Below are positions 34,996 through 64,000 of a stretch of 64,000 bases of DNA, piece after piece. The translations under genes and the position numbers were made by a program. Under the pieces are notes generated by a model, which saw only the letters and a program-made list of their open reading frames with translations, searched no databases and was not told the origin of the DNA. Position 1 is the first letter of the stretch, and the number at the start of each line of letters is the position of its first letter. The DNA is from Halobacteriota archaeon (GTDB lineage Archaea; Halobacteriota; Syntropharchaeia; Alkanophagales; Methanospirareceae), in assembly GCA_049287525.1 (NCBI GenBank), contig JBAQFZ010000059.1:3045-67044 (forward strand), in the 5' to 3' direction.

Positions 34996-35030
34996 AAATG
35001 AAAAGCCAGTTGTTCACTGGCTTATTTTTA
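34996..35030. terminator. bidirectional hairpin plus T/A-run terminator candidate at the 3' end of the surface-protein gene
   Basis: aagccag ttgttcact ggctt followed by atttttat on the plus strand; the reverse complement is also followed by ttcattttttcc. Confidence 0.45.
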
Positions 35031-36452: not shown

Positions 36453-36453
36453 T

Positions 36454-37668: not shown

Positions 37669-37758
37669 CTTATCAGGATTTGCTTTTAATAATAAAAAAA
37701 TAAAAACCCCGTAAAGGGGCTTACTCTTACTTATATAGTTCTATTTTTTTAGGTTTTT

Positions 37759-42077: not shown

Positions 42078-42113
42078 TTTTTATCTTTTCACCTCCTAAT
42101 TTTTTATATTCGT

Positions 42114-42196
42114 GCACTTACCACGGTACCATGCTGCAAAGCAGTAGGTAAATCCCCATGCATCTCGGACCGTTTAAACCGTGGTTTCTTACTTCT
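42114..42196 (-). ncRNA. conserved ~83-nt 5' leader element (copy 1) between the promoter and the GGAGGTGA Shine-Dalgarno of gene 39237..42077
   Basis: gcacttaccacggtaccatgctgcaaagcagtaggtaaatccccatgcatctcggaccgtttaaaccgtggtttcttacttc is about 90% identical to 47403-47486. Internal complementarity: ccacgg/ccgtgg and tgcaaagca. Confidence 0.45.
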
Positions 42197-42257
42197 TCCT
42201 GTCCATATCCTCTCTTTTTTCATCTTTTCCCTCCTTCCTATTTTTATAAAAAATAAT

Positions 42258-42277
42258 AAGCGGCAGTTTGCCGCTTA
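42258..42277 (-). terminator. GC hairpin directly after the stop of the dockerin gene 42280..43296
   Basis: aagcggc agtttg gccgctt; on the minus strand it is followed by a T-rich tract (reverse complement of aaaaataataa). Confidence 0.5.
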
Positions 42278-42279
42278 TT

Positions 42280-43296
42280 CTATTTTTCCCTGCAACAACA
42301 GCAGTCCAATGCTTCTCCATACATGTAGTGACGAGCGATTTTTATCGCATCGCCCAGGAAGTCTATATTTCCACTGCAATCCACGTCTCCTGCCCACCTG
42401 CATTTTATGGGGTCGCCGTACATGTAGTGCCGTGCCACACCTATCGCATCGCCCAAAAAGTCCACGTTCCCGTTCATGTTCACGTCACCACACTTCCATG
42501 TATTGGTCAGGCAGTTGTTTGTTTCGTTGCTTTCGTCCACGGTATTATTGAAATCAGCACATACCGTTATGTTATCGCTTAGTGGTGTGTATGTCCATAC
42601 ATAGTTGAAACAACCGATATGACTATCGCCTGGTGCCAGAACTACTGGTACTGGGTCGTATTCCACTTCGAGACCGTCAACATACAACATCGTGTTATGC
42701 CCCGCAGAAGCTGTTCCATTACCCGTATTCGTTACGTTATAGCATATCGTGCAGTTATCAGTCCATGTATCAGTGACCTCCAGGTCTGGTCTTTCCCCGC
42801 ATGAGAATGTGCCGTTTTTCCATTCTACATCGAGTGGTAAGGCAGGTGGTGGTGATAGCAATGAACTACCCTCAATGAATCTCAAAGGAGTGGTGCAGAA
42901 ACTCGTACTGTTGCAGCAGTGAATCGTTAGAGTTCCAATTTGGAAAGTCCCATTTTTCGGACTCAGGGTCATGAACGCTATCCACTCTCTGCCATCAACG
43001 CTTCTATCCCACGTCGAATTTTGGGGTGGTAGCCAATTAGTAGTGTTAATTTCCCAAGTTGTTACATTTGCACACCCTGGATCATAAGAGAGGTATATCG
43101 TGCCACCTGCACAACCACGTTCGTCAGTTACATTAGCCCACACCTCTACCTCTGCAGTATTGCAATAAGGTGCATTGCTGTCCTCTGGTTTAAGCCATAC
43201 CAAGTTCTCTGCGGGCTGAGCGGAAGCTGCCGTTATCCAAACCATTGCAAATAACGCAGCTATTCCAAGGAATACTATTTCATTTTTGTGTTTCAT
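42280..43296 (-). CDS. secreted adaptor protein: N-terminal cohesin-like domain, CARDB-like domain, C-terminal type-I dockerin, ends CCCCREK
   Basis: Signal peptide. The N-domain is homologous to the N-domain of the 39237 protein (VW..PE.S.A.YCNT...YDP.CANVT). The dockerin has two Ca-binding repeats GDVNMNGNVDFLGDAIGVARHYMYG / GDVDCSGNIDFLGDAIKIARHYMYG. Confidence 0.68.
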   Translation of the reverse strand: MKHKNEIVFLGIAALFAMVWITAASAQPAENLVWLKPEDSNAPYCNTAEVEVWANVTDERGCAGGTIYLSYDPGCANVTTWEINTTNWLPPQNSTWDRSVDGREWIAFMTLSPKNGTFQIGTLTIHCCNSTSFCTTPLRFIEGSSLLSPPPALPLDVEWKNGTFSCGERPDLEVTDTWTDNCTICYNVTNTGNGTASAGHNTMLYVDGLEVEYDPVPVVLAPGDSHIGCFNYVWTYTPLSDNITVCADFNNTVDESNETNNCLTNTWKCGDVNMNGNVDFLGDAIGVARHYMYGDPIKCRWAGDVDCSGNIDFLGDAIKIARHYMYGEALDCCCCREK

Positions 43297-43539
43297 CTTT
43301 TCTTCTTTCGCCCCTAGATTTTTTACTCTTTCCTTAAAAAATTCTGATAAAGATGTTCTATTTAAAAGCTTTTCGGATAAATTTCTACTGAAACATTGCT
43401 CAAATCAAGCAAAATTAATAATTGATGTTAAGATAGCCCAAAAAATCTGACCGAAATCTCTATTTTTTCTCTCAGCCTATGCTTCTTATTCATCCCTTTT
43501 CTTTTCGCCTTCCCCCATCTTTTTATAAATAAAATGAAT

Positions 43540-43556
43540 AGCGGCATTCAGCCGCT
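43540..43556 (-). terminator. hairpin overlapping the stop codon of gene 43548..46061
   Basis: agcggc attca gccgct. The same sequence is present at 47538-47558. Confidence 0.45.
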
Positions 43557-46061
43557 TATCTTACAGCAACATTTCAGGTCATACTGACCCGGATAGCCGA
43601 CGTAGTATAGCAGGTCTATCACGTCCGACATGTCTATCCGCTTATCGCAGTTCACATCCGCTGCCCATTCATTACAAAATCGGTATTGACCGGGGTAACC
43701 CACATAATATAGCAAGTCTATTACATCCGGCATGTCCACTACTTCATTGCAGTTTACGTCACCGCATTTCCATGTCTCGGTCAGGCAGTTATTGGTCTCG
43801 TTGCTCTCTGCCATAGTATTATTGGAGTCGGCGCATACCGTTATGATGTCGCCTGGTGGCGTGTATGCCCATGTGTAGTTGAAACATCCAAGGTAACTCG
43901 CATTTGGTGCCAAATTCACGGGTACAGAATCATATACCTTTTCAACACCGTCCACAAACAGCATTGTATTATGCCCTGCTGGTGCTGGTGCCGTTCCATT
44001 TCCGACGTTCGTCACGTTATAGCAAATAGTGCAGTTTTCTTGCCACGTATCCGTGATTTTAAGGTCTGGCTTCTCTTCTGGATATTTAACGGTTAACGTT
44101 ACAGTCACTGCATAAGGGTCCTCATCCGGATCATTAGAACTTATATTTAACCAGCCATGATATTCACCTGGAGAAAGACCGGTACAATTAACGCATACGT
44201 TCACCAGTTTTGAGCCACCCGGGGAAACCGTGAATGTTCTTGGATTGGCATCAAGCCAGCCTGAACCTGATTGATAATGAATTCCGATGTCATCCACCAC
44301 CAAACTACCGTTTCCCGCGTTGGAAACCGTGAATGTCTTGCAATTTACTCCTGCAGTAAGATTTGCATAATAAACAAAATTCTCTATTGCGCATTCGCCA
44401 TAACCAACCTTGAAATAGCCATCACCGTTCCAGCCAGAGCCCCAACTGTTTTTTACAATCCAGTAGTCACCTGTTTCATCGTAACCCGCTATTACAACTG
44501 CGTGATTCACATCGTTATCATCGGTGCATCTGTAAACCCCATTTACATCGAAATACCCGCCAAATTCTGAGCCTATGCCCATAGCAACAGAGAGCGGACC
44601 TTTTTCTATCAAACTATCTTTAATTGTTTCTATATCGCTTGGCACACTCCCGGTCTCGTCTATTTTCTTTAGCCTATCGCTCCAATCGGGACATCTATAT
44701 CTATCAGAACAAGGGCAATTTCGTGCAATATACGGGAAGCAAGCCTCGTCAGTTATTCCTTCGTCCCTTATAAATTCAAGTGCTGTTGAATGCCATCCCC
44801 CATTGCAATCTCCACAAACTATGCAGCAATCCGATACTAAATACTGCTCTGAAAGGTCGAAATCCAACTCCGGATTGTCATACAAGATATTGTATTCAGG
44901 TTCTACTATGCCTACGCCAGAAAAAGCCCAGCAACTGCCACAACTGCCTTGATCCTTAACCGGGGTCATCCAATCGCCTCCGTCTTTATTCCTCCAGTCG
45001 AAGTGGTTCGGGAGGCTTATCTCCTTTTCTTTAATTTCTTTCTTATTAAAGTCCGTATCGCCAACACTCTTATTCTTATTTTTGCCAAGTTTTATCTTTC
45101 CCACCTTACACTTCTCGCTTAAATTCAGTAGCTCCGAAACAGTTTTGCGGGTGCCATCAGGCAGCACACAGGTAGTAGAGTTCGTAGCAAAGCAGTCCTT
45201 CTTTCCTTTTGATGCTATAAGCCAACCCTTTTTAGCACAATAGGAAAACTCTCTCCCACACTCACCACGATAAAAAGCCCAGGCATCGCATTCCGCTTTG
45301 TCGGGCATCACACAGATGCCTCGCTCTCCTTTTTCTCCCTTTTCTATTTTGTATTCGTAGCCCATATCCATGCAGTAAACGGCAGCGGGATTTTTGATGC
45401 CTATAACTTCTCCTTCTGCTTTAGTACTGCCACTCTGAGTGCAGTTAAATTCTGACCCTTTCAAGGTTGTTATATCTGCATTAAGGCTACATGCCTCCTC
45501 ACAGCATTCGAAGTCCAGATGTTCTGGTGTTACGTTAATATCTGGCTCGCCACTGAGCCTGACCGTATTATTGCAGCACTTTGTCGGTAGTTCATCGCAG
45601 TCGCCAGGCACCACTTTAGAGCAGAACTTGTAGTCGCCTATTTCCCATCCCCCGGGAACAGGTGCGTATAACGTAACGGTCCACGTTATATAATATCCAC
45701 CGGGAAGCCAGTCAGATGTCGAATCCGTCCATATTAGGGTACCATCCGGAGCATATTCGTAGAAGTAGATGGTATAATAGCTGCCATCACCATAGTTTGC
45801 AAATTGTGAGTAATCTATGAAGTCGTCATAAGGTTCGTAGCAGGGATACTCTGACCAAACACCGTCGCCATACCATCTGAAGTCACACCCTCTGGCAATA
45901 GGCACATCGTAGTAGTCTTCAATTGGGGACTCTTGTTTTGAGATACTAATATTCAACTCCTGAAACTCCACAAATGCTCCTGACCCGGAGAGCAATGATA
46001 GTGTTAATATCATTGTCATCACTATCGCTATTACATTTATATTTCCTCTTTTAGTGTCCAC
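43548..46061 (-). CDS. secreted multidomain protein: papain-like (C1A) cysteine peptidase, CARDB-like domain, C-terminal dockerin, ends KCCCKISG
   Basis: C1 peptidase motifs KDQGSCGSCWAFS, NHAVVIAGYD and WIVKNSWGSGWNGDGYF. The CARDB PDLKITDTWQENCTICYNVTNVGNGTAPAPAGHNTMLFV is near-identical to the one in 47555..50014. Dockerin repeats GDVNCNEVVDMPDVIDLLYYVGYPGQY x2. Confidence 0.75.
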   Translation of the reverse strand: MDTKRGNINVIAIVMTMILTLSLLSGSGAFVEFQELNISISKQESPIEDYYDVPIARGCDFRWYGDGVWSEYPCYEPYDDFIDYSQFANYGDGSYYTIYFYEYAPDGTLIWTDSTSDWLPGGYYITWTVTLYAPVPGGWEIGDYKFCSKVVPGDCDELPTKCCNNTVRLSGEPDINVTPEHLDFECCEEACSLNADITTLKGSEFNCTQSGSTKAEGEVIGIKNPAAVYCMDMGYEYKIEKGEKGERGICVMPDKAECDAWAFYRGECGREFSYCAKKGWLIASKGKKDCFATNSTTCVLPDGTRKTVSELLNLSEKCKVGKIKLGKNKNKSVGDTDFNKKEIKEKEISLPNHFDWRNKDGGDWMTPVKDQGSCGSCWAFSGVGIVEPEYNILYDNPELDFDLSEQYLVSDCCIVCGDCNGGWHSTALEFIRDEGITDEACFPYIARNCPCSDRYRCPDWSDRLKKIDETGSVPSDIETIKDSLIEKGPLSVAMGIGSEFGGYFDVNGVYRCTDDNDVNHAVVIAGYDETGDYWIVKNSWGSGWNGDGYFKVGYGECAIENFVYYANLTAGVNCKTFTVSNAGNGSLVVDDIGIHYQSGSGWLDANPRTFTVSPGGSKLVNVCVNCTGLSPGEYHGWLNISSNDPDEDPYAVTVTLTVKYPEEKPDLKITDTWQENCTICYNVTNVGNGTAPAPAGHNTMLFVDGVEKVYDSVPVNLAPNASYLGCFNYTWAYTPPGDIITVCADSNNTMAESNETNNCLTETWKCGDVNCNEVVDMPDVIDLLYYVGYPGQYRFCNEWAADVNCDKRIDMSDVIDLLYYVGYPGQYDLKCCCKISG

Positions 46062-46092
46062 TTTTCTTTTTCACCTCATATTCTTTATTCTT

Positions 46093-46521
46093 TTATTGGT
46101 CTCTCATCACCTTTTCTTTCTTCTCTCCATTCCTTTTCACTACATACAACCGCATTTCAGTTCGTACTGTCCCGGATAGCCGACGTAATACAGCAGGTCT
46201 ATTACATCCGACATGTCCACCGTTCGTCACATGATAGCAAATCGTGCAGTTAGCTGGCCAGCAGACCCATTTATCGGTGATCTCCAGGTCTGGCAGTAAC
46301 ATTGCTACTTCCGTCAACGGATGCCAATCTCCGCCTTGTTGTATACCACCAGACGAATTGTAGGGTAGCATTGTATCACCAAGCCCATCGTCATCTTCAT
46401 CCGTACCGGCATAGTCGCTCCAGTAGTTACCGCCAGACCAGAACCCGCCGACGATGTTTGTTCCCGGGATAGATTTTATTACTGCTGCCCCACTTTTGCG
46501 CATTTTCATAATTTTACCCAT
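46093..46521 (-). pseudogene. decayed duplicate of the beta-helix/dockerin gene 47555..50014 (N-terminus fused to a C-terminal segment, internal deletions, frameshifted end)
   Basis: The first 17 aa, MGKIMKMRKSGAAVIKS, are identical to the start of the 47555 gene. They are then fused to IPGTNIVGGFWSGGNYWSDYAGTDED.DGLGDTMLPYNSSGGIQQGGDWHPLTEVAMLLPDLE, which is residues ~590-650 of that gene. The DNA at 46201-46330 is near-identical to 48014-48130. Confidence 0.7.
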
Positions 46522-46642
46522 TTTTCTTAAAATTAAAAACCATGACGGGGCTTAGGCTCATATATAGTTATCGAATAGGGATATTGCATAATTAAGGCAA
46601 AATTGGACTATGGCAGCAATCTGACCCGAGTTGAGCAAGTGG
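46522..46642 (-). promoter_or_regulatory. duplicated upstream (promoter/5'UTR) segment, near-identical to 50024..50142
   Basis: ggggcttaggct.atatatagttatcgaatagggatattgcataattaaggcaaaa.tggactatggcagcaatctgacccgagttgagcaag occurs in both places. Contains TATA-like atatatagtta. Confidence 0.5.
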
Positions 46643-46751
46643 AGAGATTTCGTGGAAGACATTGGATGAAAATGTGAAAAAGAGGCTTACGAGGAATCCC
46701 GCACTCTCAAGTAGGGAAAAAAAAGGAAAAAGGTAGATGGATGTCTAACAC

Positions 46752-47339
46752 CTACTTCTCCATCCACATTTCGGCATACTTGAATTCAACCAGCGAACCG
46801 TAGTCGCTGACTCCAGGATCATAGTCCCCTATAAACCCTGTGGCAGTAGCCTCTCTGAACTTTGAATTTTCACTGTACTTGCTCATAAAGTCACCGGATT
46901 TTGACATCATTTTGAACATGCCTTTTTCCAAATCACCCCCACCGGTCCACTGAGCTTGGATGGCTACTGTCTGCACAGTCCCATCAGACACGAACAACTC
47001 TATATCCACAGGAGAGAGAGTTGCAGTGCTCAGTTGTTTATCTACGTCAAAAACATCCTCGGTAGTGAACTTATAACCCCACTTATCCTCCGACAGCCAC
47101 TCTCCCAGCTCAGAGTCGTACCAATACTTGTAAATACTCAAGTACATATCGGTCCCATCGTCGGTCTCCGTCAGCGACAGGAAGGTATAAGTATACAGCT
47201 CAGGCGATTCCTCTACCCAATCCGCATAGGCTGAAACACCCTTTTCTCGATTGATTGTCTTTGATTCCAACGCTACCACCGCTTCACACATGCTCAATGC
47301 AATAACTAACGCTAGCAGGATTGCCGCTATTTTATTCAT
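46752..47339 (-). CDS. secreted hypothetical protein (signal peptide)
   Basis: MNKIAAILLALVIALSMCEAVVA signal; 195 aa; preceded by a GGAGGTGA RBS and leader-element copy 2. Confidence 0.5.
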   Translation of the reverse strand: MNKIAAILLALVIALSMCEAVVALESKTINREKGVSAYADWVEESPELYTYTFLSLTETDDGTDMYLSIYKYWYDSELGEWLSEDKWGYKFTTEDVFDVDKQLSTATLSPVDIELFVSDGTVQTVAIQAQWTGGGDLEKGMFKMMSKSGDFMSKYSENSKFREATATGFIGDYDPGVSDYGSLVEFKYAEMWMEK

Positions 47340-47402
47340 TTTTATTTCTTTTCACCTCCTATTATTTTGGGTATTTATAAAGCACCCCTCCTCGGCGCTG
47401 AT

Positions 47403-47486
47403 GCACTTACCACGGTACCATGTTGCAAAGCAGCAGGTACATCCCCGTGCATCTCGGACATTTTAAACCGTGGTTTCTTACTTCCT
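47403..47486 (-). ncRNA. conserved ~83-nt 5' leader element (copy 2) upstream of gene 46752..47339
   Basis: gcacttaccacggtaccatgttgcaaagcagcaggtacatccccgtgcatctcggacattttaaaccgtggtttcttacttcc. See 42114-42196. Confidence 0.45.
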
Positions 47487-47554
47487 TTTCTCATCTCCAT
47501 TCTTTTTCTTCAGTCTCTACTCGCCTATTTTCATAAAAAAATAATGGGCGGCAT

Positions 47555-50014
47555 TCAGCCGCTTATTTCTATGCAACAGCATTTCAGTTCATACTGCCCA
47601 GGATAGCCGACGTAATACAGCAAGTCTATCACGTCCGACATGTCTATGCTGCTCTTGTCGCAGTTCACATCCGCTACCCACTCGTTACAAATTGTATATT
47701 GCCCCAGATAACCCACATAATATAGCAGGTCTATTACATCCGACATGTCCACTACTTCATTGCAGTTTACGTCACCGCATTTCCATGTCTCGGTCAGGCA
47801 GTTGTTGGTCTCGTTGCTCTCTTCTATCGTATTAGTGGAGTCGGCACATACCGTTATGATGTCGCCTGGTGGCGTGTATGCCCATGTGTAGTTGAAACAT
47901 CCGGTGTAGCTCGCATTTGGTGCCAAATTCACGGGTACAGAATCGTATACCTTTTCAACACCGTCTACAAACAGCGTTGTATTATGCCCTGCTGGTGCCG
48001 TACCATCTCCGACGTTCGTCACATGATAGCAAATCGTGCAGTTAGCTGGCCAGCAGACCCATATCCCGATTAGCTCCAGGTCTGGCAGTAACATTGCTAC
48101 TTCCGTCAACGGATGCCAATCTCCGCCTTGTTGTATACCACCAGACGAATTGTAGGGTAGCATTGTATCACCAAGCCCATCGCCATCTTCATCCGTACCG
48201 GCATAGTCGCTCCAGTAGTTACCGCCAGACCAGAACCCGCCGACGATGTTTGTTCCCGGAATAGGTGTGATATTCCATACGTTGGTTCCAGCATCATCAT
48301 CATCATAAGCGTTGTTCGTGTTGTCGAAGTAGTTATTGTAGATCGTATTGCCATTGGACAATATTAGAGTGATACCGATGCCGTTAGTGGTTACATTATT
48401 ACCCGTTATCGTAACGTTATCAGAATTATTCAGCCTGATACCACCCGCATTATTGGCAATCCGGTTCTCGCTGATATTGACACCATCCGGGCTGTTATCC
48501 AGATCAGATAAATTGCTCTTCGATGGCTGCATTCCTGACTCATAATCCTCACTTAGCAGCGCAAGTGCAGTAGGCGGCGCAGCATAATCAGCACTTACGA
48601 TTGGCTGCTGCAAAGCGCCACCATCTGCTACTGTGGCACCTGCAAAACCAGGCATCATACCAGAACCTGAACCAGAACCAGAGACGTAATCAAGCAGAAT
48701 GGCGTAGTCACTGTTGTTAACGATAGTATTGTTGTGAATCGAAGCATTGGTGAATGAGTAGAGTTTGATGCCGTAAGCATAACTAAAAGCCGCGTTGGCC
48801 GCGATGTAGTTATCTGAGACAATGGCACCCGAACTTTCTTTCAGATAAACACCGTATCCAAGATAGTCCCCAACTCCATTGTCTACCAGGGTATTTCCTG
48901 TAATCGTCAGATTCGCAGGAGCCGCCGCAGTATAAAAAAGCGTACTTAATATCCCATGATATATGTTATGCGATGCAGTGTTATTACAAATCGTGATGTT
49001 CTCGGTTGGCGAGTCCCCCAGAAAAATGCCGTGATACCCATTATTGTTCGCCGTGTTATTGTAAATCAAAGCGTCACTGCTCTTGTATATAACAATCCCG
49101 TGTACATCATTCTCCGATGCCGTGTTATTGATAACCGTATTGTTATAAGCCGTGTCATGGATATACACCCCATACATATTGTGCCTTGCCGTGTTGTTGG
49201 TTATTGTTGCGTTACGGGACGTCCAAGATAAAATGCCGGTCCCCGTATCTTGAGTAAGATTGAAATTATAGGAGACTTCATTACTGTCAATCAGGCAGTT
49301 ATCCGAAGAATACAGACGTATACCTTCCCAGTCATTATAATTGGCAGTATTGCGTATCAGCTTGTTATTATCTGATTCATAAAGATAGATCCCCATATGC
49401 CATTCGTTCGAGTTCGCGGTGTTGTTCGTGAGCGTATTGTTATCGCTTGAAGCCCACAAGTAGATGCCGTACTGTTTGTTCGCGCTTGCGTTGTTGTTGG
49501 CAATAGTGTTGTTAAATGAGTTGTACAAATAGATACCGCAATTGTTCGAGTTTACTGTGTTGTCCGTGATGCAGCAAGTATTAACGCCGCTAAGGTAGAT
49601 TCCCGCCTTAGCATAACTCGTTGCTCCTATCAACGTGAATCCTGAGATGTTCACCCGGTTTTGGTTCACCTCAACGACATGATCGCTTGCGTCGTTCGCT
49701 TGCACAATCACTACATCCCTGTTCTCGCCTTGCAACGTCAGCGACTTGTTCACGATTACGTTATCAAGGTAACTGCCGTTGTACACGTAAATCAAGTCGC
49801 CCACAGTCGCGTTATTTATTGCCGATTGTATCGGTGTTGAACTCGCATTGAACTGCGCCGGGGCAATCCACCACCCGCTTGTGTTCACATAAATTGCGGT
49901 TGCCGACGCAGTGCCCACGCTACCAAACGTCAATACGATAAACAGGAATAGCACAAGCACAACAGATTTTATTACTGCTGCCCCGCTTTTGCGCATTTTC
50001 ATAATTTTACCCAT
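47555..50014 (-). CDS. secreted right-handed parallel beta-helix (PbH1/NosD-like) protein, CARDB-like domain, C-terminal dockerin, ends KCCCIEISG
   Basis: Many PbH1 repeats (NTVNSNNCGIYLYNSFNNTIANNNASANKQYGIYLWASSDNNTLTNNTANSNEWHMGIYL...). NosD-like C-terminal GGNYWSDYAGTDEDGDGLGDTMLPY. CARDB and dockerin as in the 43548 protein. Confidence 0.75.
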   Translation of the reverse strand: MGKIMKMRKSGAAVIKSVVLVLFLFIVLTFGSVGTASATAIYVNTSGWWIAPAQFNASSTPIQSAINNATVGDLIYVYNGSYLDNVIVNKSLTLQGENRDVVIVQANDASDHVVEVNQNRVNISGFTLIGATSYAKAGIYLSGVNTCCITDNTVNSNNCGIYLYNSFNNTIANNNASANKQYGIYLWASSDNNTLTNNTANSNEWHMGIYLYESDNNKLIRNTANYNDWEGIRLYSSDNCLIDSNEVSYNFNLTQDTGTGILSWTSRNATITNNTARHNMYGVYIHDTAYNNTVINNTASENDVHGIVIYKSSDALIYNNTANNNGYHGIFLGDSPTENITICNNTASHNIYHGILSTLFYTAAAPANLTITGNTLVDNGVGDYLGYGVYLKESSGAIVSDNYIAANAAFSYAYGIKLYSFTNASIHNNTIVNNSDYAILLDYVSGSGSGSGMMPGFAGATVADGGALQQPIVSADYAAPPTALALLSEDYESGMQPSKSNLSDLDNSPDGVNISENRIANNAGGIRLNNSDNVTITGNNVTTNGIGITLILSNGNTIYNNYFDNTNNAYDDDDAGTNVWNITPIPGTNIVGGFWSGGNYWSDYAGTDEDGDGLGDTMLPYNSSGGIQQGGDWHPLTEVAMLLPDLELIGIWVCWPANCTICYHVTNVGDGTAPAGHNTTLFVDGVEKVYDSVPVNLAPNASYTGCFNYTWAYTPPGDIITVCADSTNTIEESNETNNCLTETWKCGDVNCNEVVDMSDVIDLLYYVGYLGQYTICNEWVADVNCDKSSIDMSDVIDLLYYVGYPGQYELKCCCIEISG

Positions 50015-57540: not shown

Positions 57541-58446
57541 ATGAAGGAAGAAAGAAAGGATAGATGCGATAAGGAGGTAGGAAGAAGAGAAAGAAGTTGC
57601 AAAGGAACCTTGAAGTTGCCAATAGTGGCTAAAGCAGTTTTACTTGTCTTAATGGCAATAGCGGTTACGTCTCTCACGCTTGCTCCCGCAGCAGCACAGG
57701 AAGCAGATGTTACAGTTTCGGTTAATGCACCGGAATATGTAGAGGGAAATACTTTTGTCGCTACCATAGCAGTGGATAGTGTAACCGACTTCAATTCAGC
57801 ACAGTTCGACCTATCTTTTAATCCCGATGTTGTGAAGGTAAGCAATGTAAAGGAGGGGGAAATAAACGGAGAGAATATTCCGATTGTCATGTGGGTTTTA
57901 AACAATGATAAGGATACTGTGCGGGTGCTTGCAAGTCTGACAATTGGAGAAAGTGAGAGCGGCTCCGGGTACTTAGCAGAAGTGGAGTTCGAGGTAAAAG
58001 GAGAAGAGGGAGAGAAAAGCGAGTTAAACCTCTCTAACGGGGAACTTGTTAATGAGACCGGGAAAATAATGCTATCGAATTGGCATGGTGCTGAGGTAAC
58101 AATAGGTGTTACGCCTACACCAACGCCAGAAGAGGAGGAAGATGAAGAAGAAACTACGCCAACGCCTACACAGGAACCCGAAGTAACTCCTACACTTACG
58201 CCGGAAGCAAATATAACAGAACCAATAGTCACAACGCCTACGCCAACATTAGCACATGGTGTAACGCCATTGCAAGAAGCAACACCAGCGGTAAAAACAA
58301 CGCCAAAGCCAACAGCACCGCCAACCACTGAGGAAAAGCTAACGCCCACACCAACGCCAAAGCCTGCCGCTCCAGGATTCGAAGCTATGTTTGCAATAGC
58401 AGTGATGCTGGCAGTTGCGTATGTTTTCAAAAAAGTGGGAAGGTGA
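57541..58446 (+). CDS. scaffoldin-like surface protein: one cohesin domain, Thr/Pro/Glu-rich linker, PGF-CTERM archaeosortase anchor
   Basis: Cohesin ADVTVSVNAPEYVEGNTFVATIAVDSVTDFNSAQFDLSFNPDVVKV...YLAEVEFEVKG. Linker TPTPTPEEEEDEEETTPTPTQEPEVTPT.... C-terminus PAAPGFEAMFAIAVMLAVAYVFKKVGR (PGF, then TM, then basic tail). Confidence 0.7.
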   Translation: MKEERKDRCDKEVGRRERSCKGTLKLPIVAKAVLLVLMAIAVTSLTLAPAAAQEADVTVSVNAPEYVEGNTFVATIAVDSVTDFNSAQFDLSFNPDVVKVSNVKEGEINGENIPIVMWVLNNDKDTVRVLASLTIGESESGSGYLAEVEFEVKGEEGEKSELNLSNGELVNETGKIMLSNWHGAEVTIGVTPTPTPEEEEDEEETTPTPTQEPEVTPTLTPEANITEPIVTTPTPTLAHGVTPLQEATPAVKTTPKPTAPPTTEEKLTPTPTPKPAAPGFEAMFAIAVMLAVAYVFKKVGR

Positions 58447-59810
58447 TAAAGGGAAAAATGAAAAGCAAAACGAAAATATTAGAAATAGCAATCGTGCTGT
58501 GCCTGGTGCTGTTAGTTTCTATGTCTACCTTACCAGGAATTGCCGCTGATCAAAACCAGGAAATGCAAAAAGTAAGTGCAAGCGAGGTTACAGCAGTTTT
58601 AGAGATTTACGGCAACGCAAATGAAGACAATACCATTGACATGCGTGACTTCACCTACACGGCGAGAATAATCTGCTGGTTAGAAGAGGAAACGGATTTG
58701 GCAGATGCAAATTATGACGGAAGAATAAGCGTGGCTGATATGACGCAGATAGGGCTGATTATTCTCGGCAGGGAAAGTGAGCTTACGCTTAGTGATAGCG
58801 CAGATAGAACGGTGACGATATACAAGCCAGTTGAGCGAGTAGTTATCGCGTATTGGATCGATACCGCTGTGACGTTACAGGCACTAAAAGCCGAGGATAC
58901 CGTGGTTGGTGTTACTGATGTCATAAAAGACGAGACAATACTCTTCCCCGAGCTCAGCAAACTCCCAAGTGTTGGATCAGATCCCGATCCTGCTGCTCTC
59001 GATTTTGAGAAGATACTGGAGCTTCGACCCGATATGGTCTTTACAGGAGGTTCTTCAGCGAACCCAACCGCCTATGAAGAAATTGCACGAAGGATACATT
59101 CTGTAAATCCAGACATCGCAGTAATTTTCTTTACTTTCTGCGACCCGGTGCTTTACATCGAGGAAGTAAGAAAGACAGGATATATCTTTGATAGGAAAGA
59201 GGAAGCAGAAGAGCTTATTAAGTTCATTGAGGAACATCTAAATGAGATTAAGGAAAAGGTTAGTAACATCCCTGAAGATATGAGACCAAAAGTTTACTAT
59301 GAGTTTTTCTTTGATTACTACACGAGCGGTGAAGGAACAACCTTTGGCGGAGATATCGAAACGGCTGGTGGAAAAAATGTCTTTGATGACCTTTCAGGCT
59401 TCGGCTACTCGTTGATACCTATGGATCCTGAAGAAGTGATAAATCGCACCCCAGAAGTTATAATTCACCATGTGGGAGGGGCTTATGCTGGTCAAGTTGG
59501 TTGGGGAACAGATGATGTAACTGCACTGCGTGATAAAAGAGAAGAGATTATGAATCGCCCCGGATTTGCTGCTATTCCCGCAGTGAAGAGCGGAAGCGTT
59601 TACACGCTCGCATCTGATGTTGTACTCTCCCCACTCTATCCAGTGGGTATAGCGTATTATGCAAAGTGGTTCTATCCAGAGCTATTCGAGGATTTGGATC
59701 CAAATGCGATTCATCAGGAATACCTCACTAAGTTCCTCAGAATAGACTACGACTTGAGCAGGCACGGCGTATTCGTGTATCATCCAGAGCAGCATCCAGA
59801 TGGAAGGTGA
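58443..59810 (+). CDS. dockerin-fused ABC-type substrate-binding protein (class III, FecB/BtuF/FhuD-like)
   Basis: Signal peptide. Dockerin repeats IYGNANEDNTIDMRDFTYTARIICWL / ADANYDGRISVADMTQIGLIILG. Then an SBP fold (TVTIYKPVERVVIAYWIDTAVTLQALKAEDTVVGVT...LELRPDMVFTGG). Confidence 0.72.
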   Translation: MIKGKMKSKTKILEIAIVLCLVLLVSMSTLPGIAADQNQEMQKVSASEVTAVLEIYGNANEDNTIDMRDFTYTARIICWLEEETDLADANYDGRISVADMTQIGLIILGRESELTLSDSADRTVTIYKPVERVVIAYWIDTAVTLQALKAEDTVVGVTDVIKDETILFPELSKLPSVGSDPDPAALDFEKILELRPDMVFTGGSSANPTAYEEIARRIHSVNPDIAVIFFTFCDPVLYIEEVRKTGYIFDRKEEAEELIKFIEEHLNEIKEKVSNIPEDMRPKVYYEFFFDYYTSGEGTTFGGDIETAGGKNVFDDLSGFGYSLIPMDPEEVINRTPEVIIHHVGGAYAGQVGWGTDDVTALRDKREEIMNRPGFAAIPAVKSGSVYTLASDVVLSPLYPVGIAYYAKWFYPELFEDLDPNAIHQEYLTKFLRIDYDLSRHGVFVYHPEQHPDGR

Positions 59811-60035
59811 TAATATGCTAGTGGTAGATAGCAAGCAGGTAGTGAGATAGCATGAAAATAGAAAATATGTCCCTTATTATGTGGTGCAAATCCCCGAGGG
59901 GGCGAAACGATAGGAAAGAAAGCGAAGGTATAGATAAAAGAAAAGGAGGTGAAAAGTATGACCTACGAAGAGTTTATGGAAGCTGGCTGCTTCAGCAACC
60001 ACTAAATAAACCTATGTTTGTGGGTATTACAAAAA

Positions 60036-60082
60036 ACTGAAAAATCGGGTGGTGGGGTGTCTCCCACCCCCTTTTATTTAAA
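60036..60082 (+). terminator. GC-rich hairpin plus T-run between the SBP gene and the cyclase operon (terminator and/or promoter TATA)
   Basis: gggtggtgggg tgtct ccccaccc followed by ccttttatttaaag; ATG of the cyclase at 60103. Confidence 0.4.
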
Positions 60083-60102
60083 GATGAAAAGGGAATGCAC
60101 AA

Positions 60103-61806
60103 ATGGATATAATGAGTGTGATAGATAGATCGAGGGAATATTTAATTACAAAACAGAGACAAGACGGATCCATTTATGGTGAAGTTGAGTACAGCATTTG
60201 GCCTAGTGCAGCATATCTGCTATTATTAAATTATCTTGGAGTTCATCACGGGAGAAAAATGGATTTAATTGAATGGATTATTGACCATCAAAATGAAGAT
60301 GGAAGTTGGGGAGTTATAACAGACAAGTCTAATGGAGATTACCAAAATACACTAATGGGGTTAGCAGCTGTAAAGGCGTATATGGGCAGAGACAGAGCAG
60401 AGAGAGCAAGAGAATGGGTTCAAACATTTTCAGGTGACAAACTATTAACTCCTTTTACAGCAATCCTCCTTTCGACTAAGGAAGAAGATATAAGAATTCC
60501 AATTCCAATATATCTCACCTCAGTCAAATTTGGCAAAAATTTAGGTAAACTTCATATGATATTCCCGAAACTTTTTTCATGGAGTATTTTCTTTTATCCT
60601 CCATCATGGCTTGGAGAGGATATTCATCCTTCCTTTCAAATAATATCTGTGTTAAAGAGAAAAAAGGATAAGAAAAAACTAAATTATTTTGACAAAATGA
60701 TCGTTAATCGTGCTGAAAAAAAGCTTACCGAGTTGCAGTTAGAAAATGGTAGTTGGTCATGCCTGGCGTTATCTACAATGTGTGCGATATATGCACTTCA
60801 TGAATTGGATCATGACGTCGGCAGTGCACCAATCACCAAAGGATTACAGTTTCTTAGCAATTTAATGGGGCAAGAAGGCAATTTTAATTTGTTCCGACTG
60901 AAGGTATGGGAAACCTCCCTTGCAGTAATAGCGCTAACTGAAAGTGATATGCCTCCGGGCAATCCAATAATAATAGCAGGAAATTTCCTGATTAGAGCTC
61001 AAACAGAAAAAGGGGGGTGGTCATTTGACTTCCCCAGCAACGTACCCGATAATGACGACACTGCCTTATCCCTTTTAGCGCTAAACCGTATACCAATCGA
61101 ACAAAAAAGTAATGCAGTTAAGCATGGTATAGATTATCTCATAAGAATGCAAAATGATGACGGCGGTTGGGGTGCTTTTGACAGGAATCAGTGCCGTAAA
61201 GACCCCGGGAAAAAACCGCCTTTTGAATTGTTATGCCTAATGGATCCCAGTACTGCTGACGTAACCGGGCACGTTCTCCAGGCATTGAAGGATGTGGGTG
61301 GCTTAGATAAATCGTCAAAGATAATTAGAAAAGCGATCAAGTGGTTGAAGAATGATCAAATAAAATGTGGTGCGTGGTGGGGCAGATGGGGAATATGCTA
61401 CATATACGGTACAAGTCGAGTGTTACATGGGTTAAAAGCTGTTGGAGAAAACTTACATTCTGATTATATTTTAAAAGCTATAAGATGGATGCAAGAAATC
61501 CAAAATCCTGACGGTGGTTGGGGTGAAGATATTGCCAGTTCTCGCTCTAATGAGCCAATATTTGGTCCAAGCACTGTAGAACATACAAGTTGGGCCTTGT
61601 TAGCACTGATGGATGTAAATATTGACCTCCGCTCAGAAGTAATAAGGAGAGGGATAGACTTTTTATTAAAATCTCAAATGGAAGACGGGAACTTTCCAGG
61701 AGTGCATACTGCAGATGGTATAGATCCGGTAAAATACGAATTGTACTCTGTTATATTTCCGCTTTGGGCACTATCAAAGTTCCAAAAAATGATAGGAGGG
61801 AGTTAA
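60103..61806 (+). CDS. squalene-hopene-cyclase-like class II terpene cyclase (SQCY / prenyltransferase-squalene oxidase repeat protein) with DxDDTA catalytic motif
   Basis: Five or more QW-type repeats (HQNEDGSWGV, LQLENGSWSC, AQTEKGGWSFD, MQNDDGGWGAFD, IQNPDGGWGED). DNDDTA at 61048-61059. SHC-like N-terminus (REYLITKQRQDGSIYG...YLLLLNYLG). Confidence 0.75.
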   Translation: MDIMSVIDRSREYLITKQRQDGSIYGEVEYSIWPSAAYLLLLNYLGVHHGRKMDLIEWIIDHQNEDGSWGVITDKSNGDYQNTLMGLAAVKAYMGRDRAERAREWVQTFSGDKLLTPFTAILLSTKEEDIRIPIPIYLTSVKFGKNLGKLHMIFPKLFSWSIFFYPPSWLGEDIHPSFQIISVLKRKKDKKKLNYFDKMIVNRAEKKLTELQLENGSWSCLALSTMCAIYALHELDHDVGSAPITKGLQFLSNLMGQEGNFNLFRLKVWETSLAVIALTESDMPPGNPIIIAGNFLIRAQTEKGGWSFDFPSNVPDNDDTALSLLALNRIPIEQKSNAVKHGIDYLIRMQNDDGGWGAFDRNQCRKDPGKKPPFELLCLMDPSTADVTGHVLQALKDVGGLDKSSKIIRKAIKWLKNDQIKCGAWWGRWGICYIYGTSRVLHGLKAVGENLHSDYILKAIRWMQEIQNPDGGWGEDIASSRSNEPIFGPSTVEHTSWALLALMDVNIDLRSEVIRRGIDFLLKSQMEDGNFPGVHTADGIDPVKYELYSVIFPLWALSKFQKMIGGS

Positions 61807-62799
61807 ATGGAGTATACACCATTTTTATTGATATTTCATATAACAGGAAGATGCAATTTACAGTGTGCATACTGCTATGCAAGCTCATATGACCGGACAG
61901 ATTTAAAAATTGAGGTGGTACAGGATATATTATCACAAGCCGCCGAGTTTGACACCAGACATGTCATTTTAAGTGGTGGCGAACCTCTGCTTCATCCTGA
62001 TTTCTATGAGATTGTAGAATACGCAAAGGAACTTGGGCTGAAAGTTCATATAACATCAAATGGCACGATGATTGATGAAATTGCTGCTGAGAAATTAAAA
62101 TCACTTGATGCAAACGTTACAATCAGCCTTGATGGTTCCTGTGTTGAGGTCAATGATCCGTTACGTGGAGCGGGAACGTTCAAAATGGCAATGAACAGCA
62201 TTGATAATCTTGTCAACTCAGGCGTCTATACCTCAATGCGGATGACTCTGGTAAAGCAAAACGTCAATGATGTGCGTAATTACATAGAACTGGCTATGCA
62301 ACTCAATGTCAATAGATGCATAATTGAACGGGTGACAGGTATTATAGAAATTCCGCAGTCCATGGAATTAGAACCATCAATCGCTGATGTGCTCCGATCT
62401 TTTAAAATCATGTCAGAATACAGGAATGTGAATGGGTTCAATGTCGGATCAAATGATCCACTATGGTTATTATTTCGAAAAGATATAGTGGAAAAATACA
62501 AAAACAAAACACATATATGTGGTGGATGCGTTGCTGGAGTAACAACAATAACCGTTAATCCTGACCTTACGGTCACTCCTTGCCCCAGGTTACCAATTAC
62601 GGTCGGTAATTTAAAAGATGATTCACTGGGAGATATCTGGCACAATTCTGATGTTCTTCAAAACTTACGAGATAGGGATCTTTTCGAGGGTTGTTCATCC
62701 TGCAACTACAAATACATTTGTGGTGGTTGTAGAGGTGCAGCACACGCTCATGGGTCATATTTAGGTAAAGATCCACACTGCTGGAGGGTAAACAGATGA
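61807..62799 (+). CDS. radical SAM / SPASM-domain enzyme 1
   Basis: N-terminal CNLQCAYC with SGGEPLL. C-terminal Cys-rich SPASM (CGGCVAGV...CP...GCSSCNYKYICGGCRGAAH). Its ATG overlaps the cyclase stop (TAAATG). GGAGGG RBS. Confidence 0.8.
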   Translation: MEYTPFLLIFHITGRCNLQCAYCYASSYDRTDLKIEVVQDILSQAAEFDTRHVILSGGEPLLHPDFYEIVEYAKELGLKVHITSNGTMIDEIAAEKLKSLDANVTISLDGSCVEVNDPLRGAGTFKMAMNSIDNLVNSGVYTSMRMTLVKQNVNDVRNYIELAMQLNVNRCIIERVTGIIEIPQSMELEPSIADVLRSFKIMSEYRNVNGFNVGSNDPLWLLFRKDIVEKYKNKTHICGGCVAGVTTITVNPDLTVTPCPRLPITVGNLKDDSLGDIWHNSDVLQNLRDRDLFEGCSSCNYKYICGGCRGAAHAHGSYLGKDPHCWRVNR

Positions 62800-63764
62800 A
62801 ATGCGTACTGTTAGTCACTGAATCATGTAATCTGAGATGTAAATACTGTTATATCAGCGCTGGCGAAAATAATGCGCCACTTGCACCAACGCAGCATATA
62901 ATGCATATTATTGACCTGCTGGATACAATTGGCATAAAAAAGTTAATCATCGGCGGAGGAGAGCCTCTCTTAAGAGAGGATATATTTGACATTTTAGATA
63001 AAGCTACTGCAAGAATGCCCACGCATTTACTAACAAATGGAACGTTGATAAACGAAAAAACAGCAAAAAAAATGGCTTTGAGTGGAATAGATGGTGTGAG
63101 CATTAGCCTGGACTCTCCTATGCCAAAAGTCCATGATGAACTTAGAGATGGGTCATTCACCTCGGTTATCAATGGTATAAAACTTTGTGTAAAAGAGGGG
63201 CTGAATGTTGACGTAGCGGCGTGTGTGACTACGAAAAACTTTGATTATGCACTGGATTTAATACTTTTTGCTGAAAATATTGGTGCCACTTCAATCACTT
63301 TTGAAGGCTTAAATCCCGTTGGGAGAGGAAAAGATTGTGCAAACTTAGCATTAACAGCAAGACAAACAGATACATTTTTACAAACTATATATGAGATACT
63401 ACATGATATAAAGCCGAACATTAAAGTAGTAGTATTTGACCCACAATGGGTCAGATGGGACCGTAGTGCAATGGGTTGTGAAGTAGGAAAAACCTTCTTC
63501 GGATTGCGCTCGAATGGTGACATACTTCCATGCACTAATCTCCCTATAACCTTGGGGAACATATTAGAAGATGACTTCTCAGCTATATGGAACTGCGAAA
63601 TGATGAATGCCCTCCGCACGAAGCGAAATGGCGGCTGCAATACATGTCAATATCGAGACCGATGTGGTGGATGTCGAAGTAAAGCGTATGCTGCGGGGGA
63701 TATATTTGGAAGTGATCCATCATGTTCGCAGGCACCGGAAGAGGAGGAGGTGAGGCAATGGTAA
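62796..63764 (+). CDS. radical SAM / SPASM-domain enzyme 2
   Basis: CNLRCKYC, GGGEPLL. C-terminal CEVG...C...GCNTCQYRDRCGGCRSKAYA. Start overlaps the upstream stop (ATGA). Confidence 0.8.
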   Translation: MKCVLLVTESCNLRCKYCYISAGENNAPLAPTQHIMHIIDLLDTIGIKKLIIGGGEPLLREDIFDILDKATARMPTHLLTNGTLINEKTAKKMALSGIDGVSISLDSPMPKVHDELRDGSFTSVINGIKLCVKEGLNVDVAACVTTKNFDYALDLILFAENIGATSITFEGLNPVGRGKDCANLALTARQTDTFLQTIYEILHDIKPNIKVVVFDPQWVRWDRSAMGCEVGKTFFGLRSNGDILPCTNLPITLGNILEDDFSAIWNCEMMNALRTKRNGGCNTCQYRDRCGGCRSKAYAAGDIFGSDPSCSQAPEEEEVRQW

Positions 63765-64000
63765 AACGCTTAGCAAAATTGGCAAAATTCATAGAGCTGC
63801 CTCGACCGCCATTGCTTGTTGTTCCTGCCGCTTTAGGAACTTGTGGGGTATTCCTTTCTTGTGCGGATTCGAATTTCATTGCACTGATACTTGGAGCGTT
63901 AATTCCAGGTTTAGCCTGGGCTGGCGGGCTAGTATTCAATGACTATTTCGATATAAAATCCGATATAATAAGATATCCAGAAAGACCGATTGCTTCAGGC
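63758..64000 (+). CDS. UbiA-family aromatic/isoprenoid prenyltransferase (5' partial; continues beyond the window end)
   Basis: Not in the ORF track because no stop lies inside the window. Translation: MVKRLAKLAKFIELPRPPLLVVPAALGTCGVFLSCADSNFIALILGALIPGLAWAGGLVFNDYFDIKSDIIRYPERPIASG. Contains the first Asp-rich motif NDYFDIKSD. The ATG overlaps the upstream stop (ATGGTAA). Strong GGAGGAGGTGAGG RBS. Confidence 0.65.
   Translation, partial: MVKRLAKLAKFIELPRPPLLVVPAALGTCGVFLSCADSNFIALILGALIPGLAWAGGLVFNDYFDIKSDIIRYPERPIASG

Follow-up and report, generated by a model that had tools for sequence, protein, structure and literature searches.

The window analysed here is a stretch of 64,000 nucleotides from a Halobacteriota archaeon (contig JBAQFZ010000059.1), and the subject of this report is the group of genes at its far end, where four plus-strand genes follow a 15-codon open reading frame (ORF; Table 1). 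The genes encode, in order, a class II terpene cyclase resembling squalene-hopene cyclase (SHC), two radical S-adenosylmethionine (rSAM) enzymes with SPASM domains (rS1 and rS2), and a UbiA-family prenyltransferase. An earlier note on this DNA had described the four genes as a translationally coupled operon, and they do form one coupled unit where it had placed them. All three junctions had been called overlapping; this holds for ATGA (62796-62799) and ATGGTAA (63758-63764), whereas in TAAATG (61804-61809) the stop and start codons abut without overlap. Ribosome-binding sites (RBSs) of the GGAGG type, which had been assigned to each gene, lie 8-10 nt upstream of genes 2, 3 and 4, whereas gene 1 has AAGGGA only.

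Table 1. Positions in the window of the cluster genes, the short ORF with its signals, and the adjacent upstream gene.
Feature	Position	Strand	Basis
Peripla_BP_2 substrate-binding protein (ferrichrome/heme/B12-type), 455 aa	58443..59810	+	Pfam 4e-26; NCBIfam ferrichrome-type substrate-binding protein 1.2e-22
GGAGGTG RBS of the peptide ORF	59945..59951	+	Read from sequence
Conserved 15-codon ORF MTYEEFMEAGCFSNH*, candidate precursor peptide	59958..60005	+	Comparison of related loci
G+C-rich hairpin (60051-60068) then T-run, terminator/attenuator-like	60051..60080	+	Terminator scan, RNAfold
SHC-like beta-gamma class II terpene cyclase, 567 aa	60103..61806	+	Pfam, NCBIfam, PDB, AlphaFold (AF2)/Foldseek
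rS1, radical-SAM/SPASM enzyme, 330 aa; CNLQCAYC at 61852-61875	61807..62799	+	Pfam, orthologues
rS2, radical-SAM/SPASM enzyme, 322 aa; CNLRCKYC at 62826-62849	62796..63764	+	Pfam, linkage
UbiA-family prenyltransferase, N-terminal 80 aa, cut at window end; alternative start 63722	63758..64000	+	Pfam, P0260

The short ORF, which the earlier note had overlooked, runs from an ATG at 59958 to a TAA at 60003-60005 and lies in a conserved block of 50-70 nt upstream of the first enzyme gene, which shows 72-88% nucleotide identity among loci whose proteins are 50-70% identical. It occurs exactly once, in the same relative place, in every related locus with upstream DNA (21/21, from 12 lineages), including Methanotrichaceae-labelled, Candidatus Freyrarchaeum-labelled, Methanobacterium petrolearium and Methanobrevibacter oralis loci. 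The encoded peptide is MDYEEFKEIGCFHNH in M. petrolearium, MEYKEFLEAGCFCNH in the Freyrarchaeum-labelled contig, MTYEEFLEAGCMSNH in the Methanotrichaceae-labelled contig and MSYEEFLMLGCKHNH in M. oralis; M1, Y3, E5, F6, G10, C11, N14, H15 and the stop codon are invariant. Entropy at the first, second and third codon positions is 0.43, 0.26 and 0.77, as against 1.26-1.49 in the flanks, and seven of the nine invariant codons show synonymous third-position changes. Because of this codon-position pattern and these synonymous changes, the ORF is a coding sequence under purifying selection and not merely an RNA or DNA element. Most of the 12 lineages have a GGAGG-like RBS equally far ahead of it, with a weaker or partial one in L102, L111 and M. 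oralis (L097). The window also has a TATA-like A/T-rich box, TATAGATAAAAG (~59929-59940), immediately before the RBS, and similar boxes are seen in L104, L106, L107 and L006. No NCBIfam model matches the ORF, and we found no paper on it. A 62-aa ORF that overlies it in another frame (59852-60040) is probably no gene, its translation being conserved no further than the shared nucleotides would give.

By RNAfold, 11 of the 12 lineages have a hairpin in the interval from the peptide ORF to the first enzyme gene; the stems differ in sequence and stay complementary. The hairpin is G+C-rich with a T-run in 10 of the 12; that of M. oralis has no T-run, and M. petrolearium (L006) has a long T-rich tract only. 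In the window, the earlier note had seen this element as separating the operon from the upstream gene; the hairpin and T-run are indeed present, but they follow the cluster's own 15-codon ORF and so do not mark that boundary. RNAalifold found no consensus in the intergenic region after the ORF because MAFFT did not register the hairpins, which are shown sequence by sequence instead. In Rfam, four related loci had no match that reached gathering score, and the 55-64 kb part of the window had just two at chance level.

Both middle genes encode rSAM enzymes with the CxxxCxxC motif and a SPASM domain, as had been read from the sequence: Pfam Radical_SAM and SPASM match at 5e-30 and 2e-11 in rS1 and at 6e-27 and 8e-10 in rS2. 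They are not orthologues of the heme-pathway enzymes AhbC, AhbD or NirJ, with scores of 110-200 bits against cut-offs of 500-650 (for rS1 and rS2 respectively, NirJ2 170 and 200 bits against 500, AhbD 166 and 179 against 500, AhbC 123 and 110 against 650). The proposed likeness to the archaeal lipid enzymes Tes and Grs fared poorly, since Tes (PDB 7tol) is matched weakly (5.9e-7 by rS1, 6.4e-4 by rS2), over the rSAM core only, and is absent from the top 25 NCBIfam matches. The best PDB matches of both proteins are SkfB, PqqE, CteB and SuiB, which are maturases of peptides that are made on the ribosome and modified after translation (RiPPs). It is a hallmark of PqqA/PqqE, MftA/MftC and sactipeptide or ranthipeptide maturation that a short conserved ORF immediately precedes the SPASM rSAM genes, and the same is found with the three-residue cyclophanes. 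This arrangement, together with the closest solved relatives, is why we read the core of the cluster as RiPP-like or as making a peptide-derived cofactor.

The identification of gene 4 as a UbiA-family enzyme stands: the 80-aa fragment matches Pfam UbiA at 5e-7 and carries NDYFDIKSD at 63938-63964. The same NCBI contig encodes the full 297-aa protein (P0260), which matches the fragment exactly, is started by NCBI at 63722, and contains a second Asp-rich motif, DNIIGRFPDIEVD. The orthologue in locus L087 matches Pfam UbiA at 8e-36. Its best PDB match is the digeranylgeranylglyceryl phosphate (DGGGP) synthase of Methanocaldococcus jannaschii (6m31, 3e-24), with chlorophyll synthase second. The cluster enzyme thus resembles DGGGP synthase in its UbiA fold, full-length alignment and both Asp-rich motifs, but it differs in missing the DGGGP synthase equivalog (138 bits against 296), in always being encoded after rS1-rS2, and in belonging to a separate orthogroup. 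This orthogroup comprises just 20 clusters at 58-100% identity, P0260 being one of them, before identity drops to 28% in proteins annotated as DGGGP synthases.

Co-localisation with rSAM and UbiA genes is kept in relatives of the window cluster. The earlier note would have been refuted by AhbC/AhbD orthologues whose linkage to the cyclase is lost in relatives, which is not the case here. The nearest are L087-L090, from relatives of anaerobic methanotrophic archaea of group 1 (ANME-1), in which the peptide ORF precedes a cyclase 93% identical to that of the window; L087 shares 88.9% nucleotide identity over window positions 59849-63952. The full order in L087-L089 is cyclase, rS1, rS2, UbiA (294 aa) and a B12-binding rSAM enzyme (468 aa). 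M. petrolearium has the peptide and orthologues of the cyclase (45% identity), rS1 (62%), rS2 (~59%), UbiA (58%) and the B12-rSAM enzyme (75%). The rS1 orthogroup (47-87% identity) extends to ANME-1 relatives, a Candidatus Freyrarchaeum-labelled contig, Methanothermobacter, M. oralis, M. petrolearium and Methanobacterium ferruginis, and rS2 directly follows rS1 in all related loci. Scanning metagenomes with the UbiA alignment turned up 13 orthologous loci, in which rS1-rS2 precede UbiA wherever the contig reaches upstream and the peptide ORF lies ahead of rS1-rS2 wherever its position is covered. In M. oralis only the peptide, rS1 and rS2 are found, with no UbiA or cyclase gene within 10 kb. 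The core therefore consists of the peptide, rS1 and rS2, usually with UbiA, and the cyclase and B12-rSAM enzyme are exchangeable tailoring accessories; the cyclase has probably moved horizontally.

Several other genes recur beside this core. A CrtI/CrtISO-like FAD oxidoreductase (~505 aa; carot_isom 152-158 bits) is found in eight loci and speaks for an isoprenoid tailoring of what the core makes. The Peripla_BP_2 protein of the window (58443-59810), possibly associated with the cluster, has homologues (48-57% identity) next to the core in L104, L105, L106, L087 and L090. In Methanobacteriales, paralogous membrane proteins resembling S components of energy-coupling factor (ECF) transporters recur near the core together with CbiQ and ABC genes. 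The UbiA of the Methanotrichaceae-labelled locus L106 equals P0270, and the gene directly after it (L106:11145-12467) encodes a distinct cyclase homologue of 440 aa with PDADDTAL, which shares 26% identity with the window cyclase over residues 196-531 of the latter; four Peripla_BP_2 paralogues and a CrtI-like gene lie upstream. In L101, whose rS1, rS2 and UbiA are 88-92% identical to those of L087, UbiA is followed by a class I SAM methyltransferase gene that is apparently split in two ORFs (L101:3369-4055). At 12834-16252 of L087, directly after the B12-rSAM gene and on its strand, and also in L088 and L089, come genes for nitrogenase-like D (487 aa) and K (418 aa) proteins and a NifH-like protein, with 59- and 79-nt gaps, the last matching the NCBIfam 'nitrogenase reductase-like protein' at 337 bits against a cut-off of 350; conservation of these genes with the cluster does not extend to M. 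petrolearium or other core loci. The M. petrolearium cluster (L006; AP027739, 1225546-1247012) looks decayed or frameshifted, with the cyclase in ORFs of 54 aa (the N-terminus) and 488 aa, rS2 in two ORFs, and a second UbiA copy also split in two; ABC exporter genes lie between its halves, and three paralogous membrane proteins of 173-175 aa with CbiQ and ABC genes follow it.

The first gene of the operon had been recognised as an SHC-like class II cyclase with the DxDDTA motif, which is borne out by sequence and by structure prediction: DNDD lies at 61048-61059 and TA at 61060-65 (D316-A321), and Pfam SQHop_cyclase_C and SQHop_cyclase_N match at 7.5e-82 and 7.6e-24. The best PDB match is the SHC of Alicyclobacillus acidocaldarius (1gsz, 2.8e-65), to whose D374-D377 the DxDD motif aligns, followed by oxidosqualene cyclases (~1e-23 to 1e-28) and drimenyl-PP synthase (1e-9). 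An AlphaFold (AF2) model built on 76 homologues (pLDDT 93.3, pTM 0.94) shows the beta-gamma class II cyclase fold; in Foldseek it matches SHC best, along its whole length (TMq 0.81), and oxidosqualene cyclase (OSC) and drimenyl-PP synthase are also matched. By family and fold the protein is a genuine SHC-type beta-gamma class II cyclase. It does not reach the SHC equivalog TIGR01507 (263.8 bits against a cut-off of 431.1) or the squalene_cyclas subfamily (263.7 against 322.7), and it falls ~60 residues short of SHC in length. Neither squalene synthase nor hpn genes were found near it in the related loci or among the window ORFs scanned, roughly 30 of the 42 other large ORFs.

Residue correspondences were counted by hand along the HMMER alignment to SHC, in which PDNDDTAL of the cyclase stands opposite PDVDDTAV. 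The catalytic aspartates D374, D376 and D377 are kept as D316, D318 and D319, which are invariant among the 76 homologues. Also kept are H451, D447 and Y495 (H390, D386 and Y435), W312, F365 and Y420 (W269, F308 and F359), and W489, Y609 and Y612 (W429, Y545 and Y548), and these retained residues are mostly invariant or near-invariant across the cyclase clade. F601 and F605 are without aromatic counterpart whichever way gaps are placed (AAAIDPGKY; ADGIDPVKY in the window), and the SHC segment I261-Y267 (IQPPWFY) is replaced by LALSTMC. Judged from this alignment, the protonation machinery and the template for the A and B rings appear competent and the distal end of the cavity altered, which would imply fewer rings or a substrate other than squalene.

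About 23 clusters in a collection of 5.8 billion proteins are at least 36% identical to the window cyclase, whereas canonical SHCs are ~30% identical. They come from ANME-1 relatives, genomes of the 'unclassified Archaeoglobus' type, M. petrolearium, metagenome contigs and Clostridia (Ruminiclostridium sufflavum). A contig profile search with the cyclase alignment (pattern QNxDGGWGE) returned, among the matches listed, bacterial SHCs only, at 26-35% identity, and no close relatives. In a neighbour-joining tree (100 bootstraps, unrooted, OSC, Lon15 and AtoE references left out), the archaeal and Clostridial clade is supported at 100% and a subclade of the window cyclase, P0002 and M. petrolearium at 94%. 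A further split with 100% support sets the clade, two further groups and the Bacillus SqhC type (sporulenol synthase) apart from canonical SHCs.

UbiA and rSAM genes lie beside the cyclase in every clade member with readable context. The order is rSAM, UbiA, cyclase, rSAM in the Archaeoglobus-labelled contigs and UbiA, cyclase, rSAM in the P0013 contigs. In R. sufflavum (L093) and a Logan contig (L094) it is NUDIX, polyprenyl synthase, (DXS), UbiA, cyclase, UbiA, cyclase, five SPASM rSAM genes and a U32 peptidase-family protein. The DXS gene is in L094, and a B12-rSAM gene closes the cluster in L093 (R. sufflavum QKMR01000008); the five SPASM rSAM proteins are paralogues of 460-490 aa that resemble CefB/PapB. 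The Archaeoglobus-labelled, P0013 and Clostridial clusters have another UbiA (323 aa) and other rSAM enzymes than the window.

The impression by eye that the region is AT-rich was confirmed by composition: G+C content of the four genes is 0.39-0.43, and G+C content at third codon positions is 0.31-0.35, below that of all 42 other large window ORFs (mean 0.482, sd 0.046, minimum 0.367), which is consistent with horizontal acquisition. The genes around the cluster are ordinary archaeal chromosomal ones, such as those for FtsZ, GatE, RLI/ABCE1, FrhB-type F420 enzymes, LarC and PEPCK. The cyclase is identical to MFZ2070917.1, and since its 90% cluster includes a protein named 'Methanophagales archaeon', the source organism is probably an ANME-1 relative. 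Elsewhere in the window, cohesin-domain proteins are encoded at 22084-22986 and, ahead of the cluster, at 57541-58446, with two or three cohesin genes in the latter place in L087 and L090. Large minus-strand genes for CARDB-domain proteins, probably secreted or on the surface, form a run at 39237-50014; their products include a protease of the papain family with DUF333 (43548-46061) and a NosD/beta-helix protein (47555-50014). At 35028-39096, three minus-strand ORFs in succession (474, 404 and 445 aa) lack any Pfam match at 1e-5. A further radical-SAM gene, 36 kb upstream of the cluster at 23563-24537, encodes 324 aa that match Radical_SAM and Fer4_12 but not SPASM.

We read the region as a single biosynthetic cluster that joins a RiPP-like core to terpenoid tailoring, so that a peptide-derived product is prenylated and the tail then cyclised, and we give this reading about an even chance. 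More tentatively, and at somewhat under even odds, the product could represent a new class of natural product: a ribosomal, rSAM-crosslinked 15-residue peptide, or a cofactor-like fragment of it, prenylated by UbiA, its tail turned by an SHC-like cyclase into a polycyclic, methylated terpenoid, with every step proceeding in the absence of oxygen in methane-cycling archaea. The peptide would be made in excess over the enzymes, in a ratio set by the leaky terminator-like hairpin after its ORF. Each of rS1 and rS2 would install one radical-mediated modification. By precedent these might be a C-C bond between Tyr3 and Glu5, of the pyrroloquinoline quinone (PQQ) or cyclophane type, and a thioether between Cys11 and Asn14, of the ranthipeptide type; the invariant Tyr/Glu and Cys/Asn fit known crosslink chemistries. 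The DGGGP synthase-like UbiA enzyme would then move a polyprenyl chain from its diphosphate onto the modified peptide or onto a small molecule cut out of it. Asp318 of DNDDTA in the cyclase would protonate the terminal double bond of the chain and close the distal rings, two or three being expected rather than five. A B12-rSAM enzyme, putatively encoded just past the window end as in close relatives, would methylate the product. Tailoring of the chain would vary by lineage, through a CrtI-like desaturase/isomerase, a class II cyclase, a B12-rSAM enzyme or a class I methyltransferase. Here we infer that the peptide serves as substrate, and likewise in which order the steps run, which acceptor atom is used, how long the chain is, how many rings form and what the physiological role is. 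With siderophore-type binding proteins and ECF/ABC transporters nearby, there is a hint that the product is a lipopeptide that is secreted or anchored in the membrane and perhaps binds metal, which is the weakest part of the argument.

Several observations weigh against this reading. The peptide is 15 aa long and has no leader; rS1 and rS2 (322-330 aa) match just Radical_SAM, Fer4_12 and SPASM and so have no RiPP recognition element (RRE) domain; no PqqD-like gene was seen in the related loci, and the cluster has no peptidase gene. We know of no UbiA enzyme that prenylates peptides. The window ends before the expected position of the B12-rSAM gene, which is seen in relatives only. L101 and L111 are close relatives (core enzymes ~90% identical) that have the core but no cyclase, which is therefore dispensable for the core product. 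No conserved small ORF was found in the Archaeoglobus-labelled and Clostridial clusters, where the sole matches are artefacts antisense to genes, and the cyclase clade overall is therefore independent of the peptide. A 15-codon ORF followed by a hairpin could also be a regulatory arrest or attenuation peptide.

The last of these points leads to a quite different account, in which the ORF is a regulatory leader or arrest peptide that governs read-through with the hairpin and T-run, and the rSAM enzymes, then UbiA, then the cyclase act on an imported small molecule. The hairpin and T-run in 10 of 12 lineages, a second small hairpin just past the stop codon in several of them, the uptake components nearby (Peripla_BP_2, ECF S paralogues, CbiQ) and the absence of an RRE domain, leader and peptidase would all suit it. 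Yet very distant archaea share eight scattered residues at the amino-acid level, regulatory codons form no run, the terminator hairpin begins 45 nt past the stop and so out of reach of a ribosome paused there, and the short ORF with SPASM rSAM genes is a textbook signature of peptide maturation; we regard regulation as improbable. The earlier note had favoured an isoprenoid product; in a purely isoprenoid pathway of this kind, UbiA would join a polyprenyl chain to a glycerol or aromatic acceptor, the cyclase would cyclise it and the rSAM enzymes would make C-C bonds or other changes on the isoprenoid as Tes and GrsA/B do, to yield a cyclised ether lipid or quinone-like compound. UbiA is indeed closest to archaeal DGGGP synthase, the CrtI-like desaturase and the B12-rSAM enzyme (best NCBIfam model HpnJ; HpnR also matched) accompany the core, and the pairing of UbiA and class II cyclase is well established from bacterial meroterpenoid pathways such as that of MstE (PMC12324236). 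This pathway is nonetheless unlikely: the match of rS1 and rS2 to Tes is weak (6e-7 and 6e-4 in PDB), the UbiA orthogroup is tiny and far from true DGGGP synthases, and the strongly conserved 15-aa ORF would go unexplained. The rSAM pair travels with that ORF in M. oralis even without UbiA and cyclase, which argues for a peptide substrate.

We think it very improbable that the cyclase acts independently of its neighbours, as an enzyme merely inserted by the peptide cluster that turns squalene or another free polyprene into a hopanoid-like or sporulenol-like hydrocarbon. Such a role would agree with the closest solved structure being SHC, with the kept DxDDTA, with the close relatives that hold the core alone and with the atypical composition of the gene. 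Against it, the gene sits between the peptide ORF and rS1 with its stop abutting the rS1 start (TAAATG), and the association recurs in M. petrolearium, while a second, unrelated DxDD homologue stands in the Methanotrichaceae-labelled core cluster. The 264-bit score against the hopene_cyclase cut-off of 431, the loss of aromatics at F601/F605, the different I261-Y267 segment and the lack of squalene synthase and hpn genes among the annotated window ORFs point the same way. It is also very improbable that the cluster concerns tetrapyrroles, with AhbD/NirJ-like rSAM enzymes changing the side chains on a macrocycle of the heme, F430 or corrinoid type and a UbiA enzyme of the chlorophyll- or heme-O-synthase kind prenylating it. 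NirJ2 and AhbD are the best NCBIfam models of rS1 and rS2, chlorophyll synthases are the second-best UbiA relatives, heme/B12-type binding proteins and CbiQ transporters lie nearby, and nitrogenase-like D/K/H genes follow the cluster in L087. But the scores of 166-200 bits are far under the cut-off of 500 and barely over those of other SPASM families (115-160 bits), and the FAD enzyme is CrtISO/CrtI-like (152-158 bits, with 33 bits for protoporphyrinogen oxidase). The nitrogenase-like genes, moreover, are not conserved with the cluster, and the peptide is again unexplained.

Set beside known systems, the peptide-terpenoid reading combines elements that otherwise occur apart. Like the SHC of A. 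acidocaldarius (PDB 1gsz/2sqc) and SqhC, the cyclase has a beta-gamma didomain, QW repeats, the DxDDTA acid with its His/Asp/Tyr support network, and A/B-ring aromatics, and it falls with the Bacillus SqhC type on the non-canonical side of the unrooted tree. It departs from SHC in its ~30% identity, its length (567 against ~630 aa) and its score (264 bits against cut-offs of 431 and 323), and from both SHC and SqhC in its partners, which are UbiA, rSAM/SPASM genes and a small peptide rather than hpn or sporulene genes. The proposed prenylation by a membrane UbiA enzyme followed by protonation-driven cyclisation of the tail resembles the meroterpenoid pathways of MstE (merosterolic acid) and Lon15 (longestin; PMC12324236). 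MstE, however, is a monodomain enzyme with DxD whose Foldseek match to the cyclase model is weak (E 1.6e-8, TMq 0.39), Lon15 uses an epoxidised substrate, and both pathways are bacterial and aerobic and contain no ribosomal peptide or SPASM rSAM enzymes. In contrast to SPASM RiPP systems, the window cluster has a leaderless peptide and no RRE, PqqD or MftB partner or peptidase, misses all NCBIfam equivalog cut-offs and, unlike any described RiPP class, has a UbiA prenyltransferase and isoprenoid-tailoring enzymes after the rSAM unit. All its enzymes are from known superfamilies, the cyclase and UbiA outside the SHC equivalog and DGGGP synthase; we found no description of the combination of peptide, SPASM rSAM, UbiA and SHC-like cyclase in the literature searched.

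The view that only bacteria and eukaryotes have class II cyclases no longer holds, since Asgard and other archaeal class II diterpenoid cyclases (bioRxiv 10.1101/2025.02.07.637177) and archaeal MstE-like sequences (PMC12324236) have been reported. The Asgard halimadienyl-PP synthases resemble the window cyclase as class II cyclases by which archaea can cyclise prenyl chains, but they belong to the diterpenoid (CPS/Rv3377c) branch acting on geranylgeranyl diphosphate, whereas the window cyclase falls in the SHC/OSC half and matches Rv3377c at 6.7e-6. Neither of the two reports mentions an SHC-type archaeal clade. The archaeal class II cyclases reported so far are of the diterpenoid or MstE-like branches, and that of the window is of another kind.

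To the best of our knowledge, SHC-type cyclases have until now been regarded as bacterial and eukaryotic. An SHC-type enzyme with an apparently intact catalytic motif in ANME-1 relatives, M. petrolearium and Archaeoglobus-labelled genomes raises the question of cyclic terpenoids from strictly anaerobic archaea, which bears on the source assignment of 13C-depleted polycyclic terpenoids at methane seeps. The Clostridial combination of UbiA, SHC-like cyclase and many rSAM enzymes suggests that rSAM enzymes fill the tailoring role that P450s have in aerobes. The 15-aa ORF makes an orphan operon into a testable system of four or five small genes. If the product is a peptide-terpenoid hybrid, the core of peptide and two rSAM enzymes would amount to an archaeal system not yet described, with a range from Methanobrevibacter to an Asgard-labelled contig, and the RiPP and terpenoid fields would be linked through UbiA, a type of enzyme not known in RiPP pathways. 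In that case polycyclic terpenoid biomarkers at methane seeps would have a source in ANME-1 relatives.

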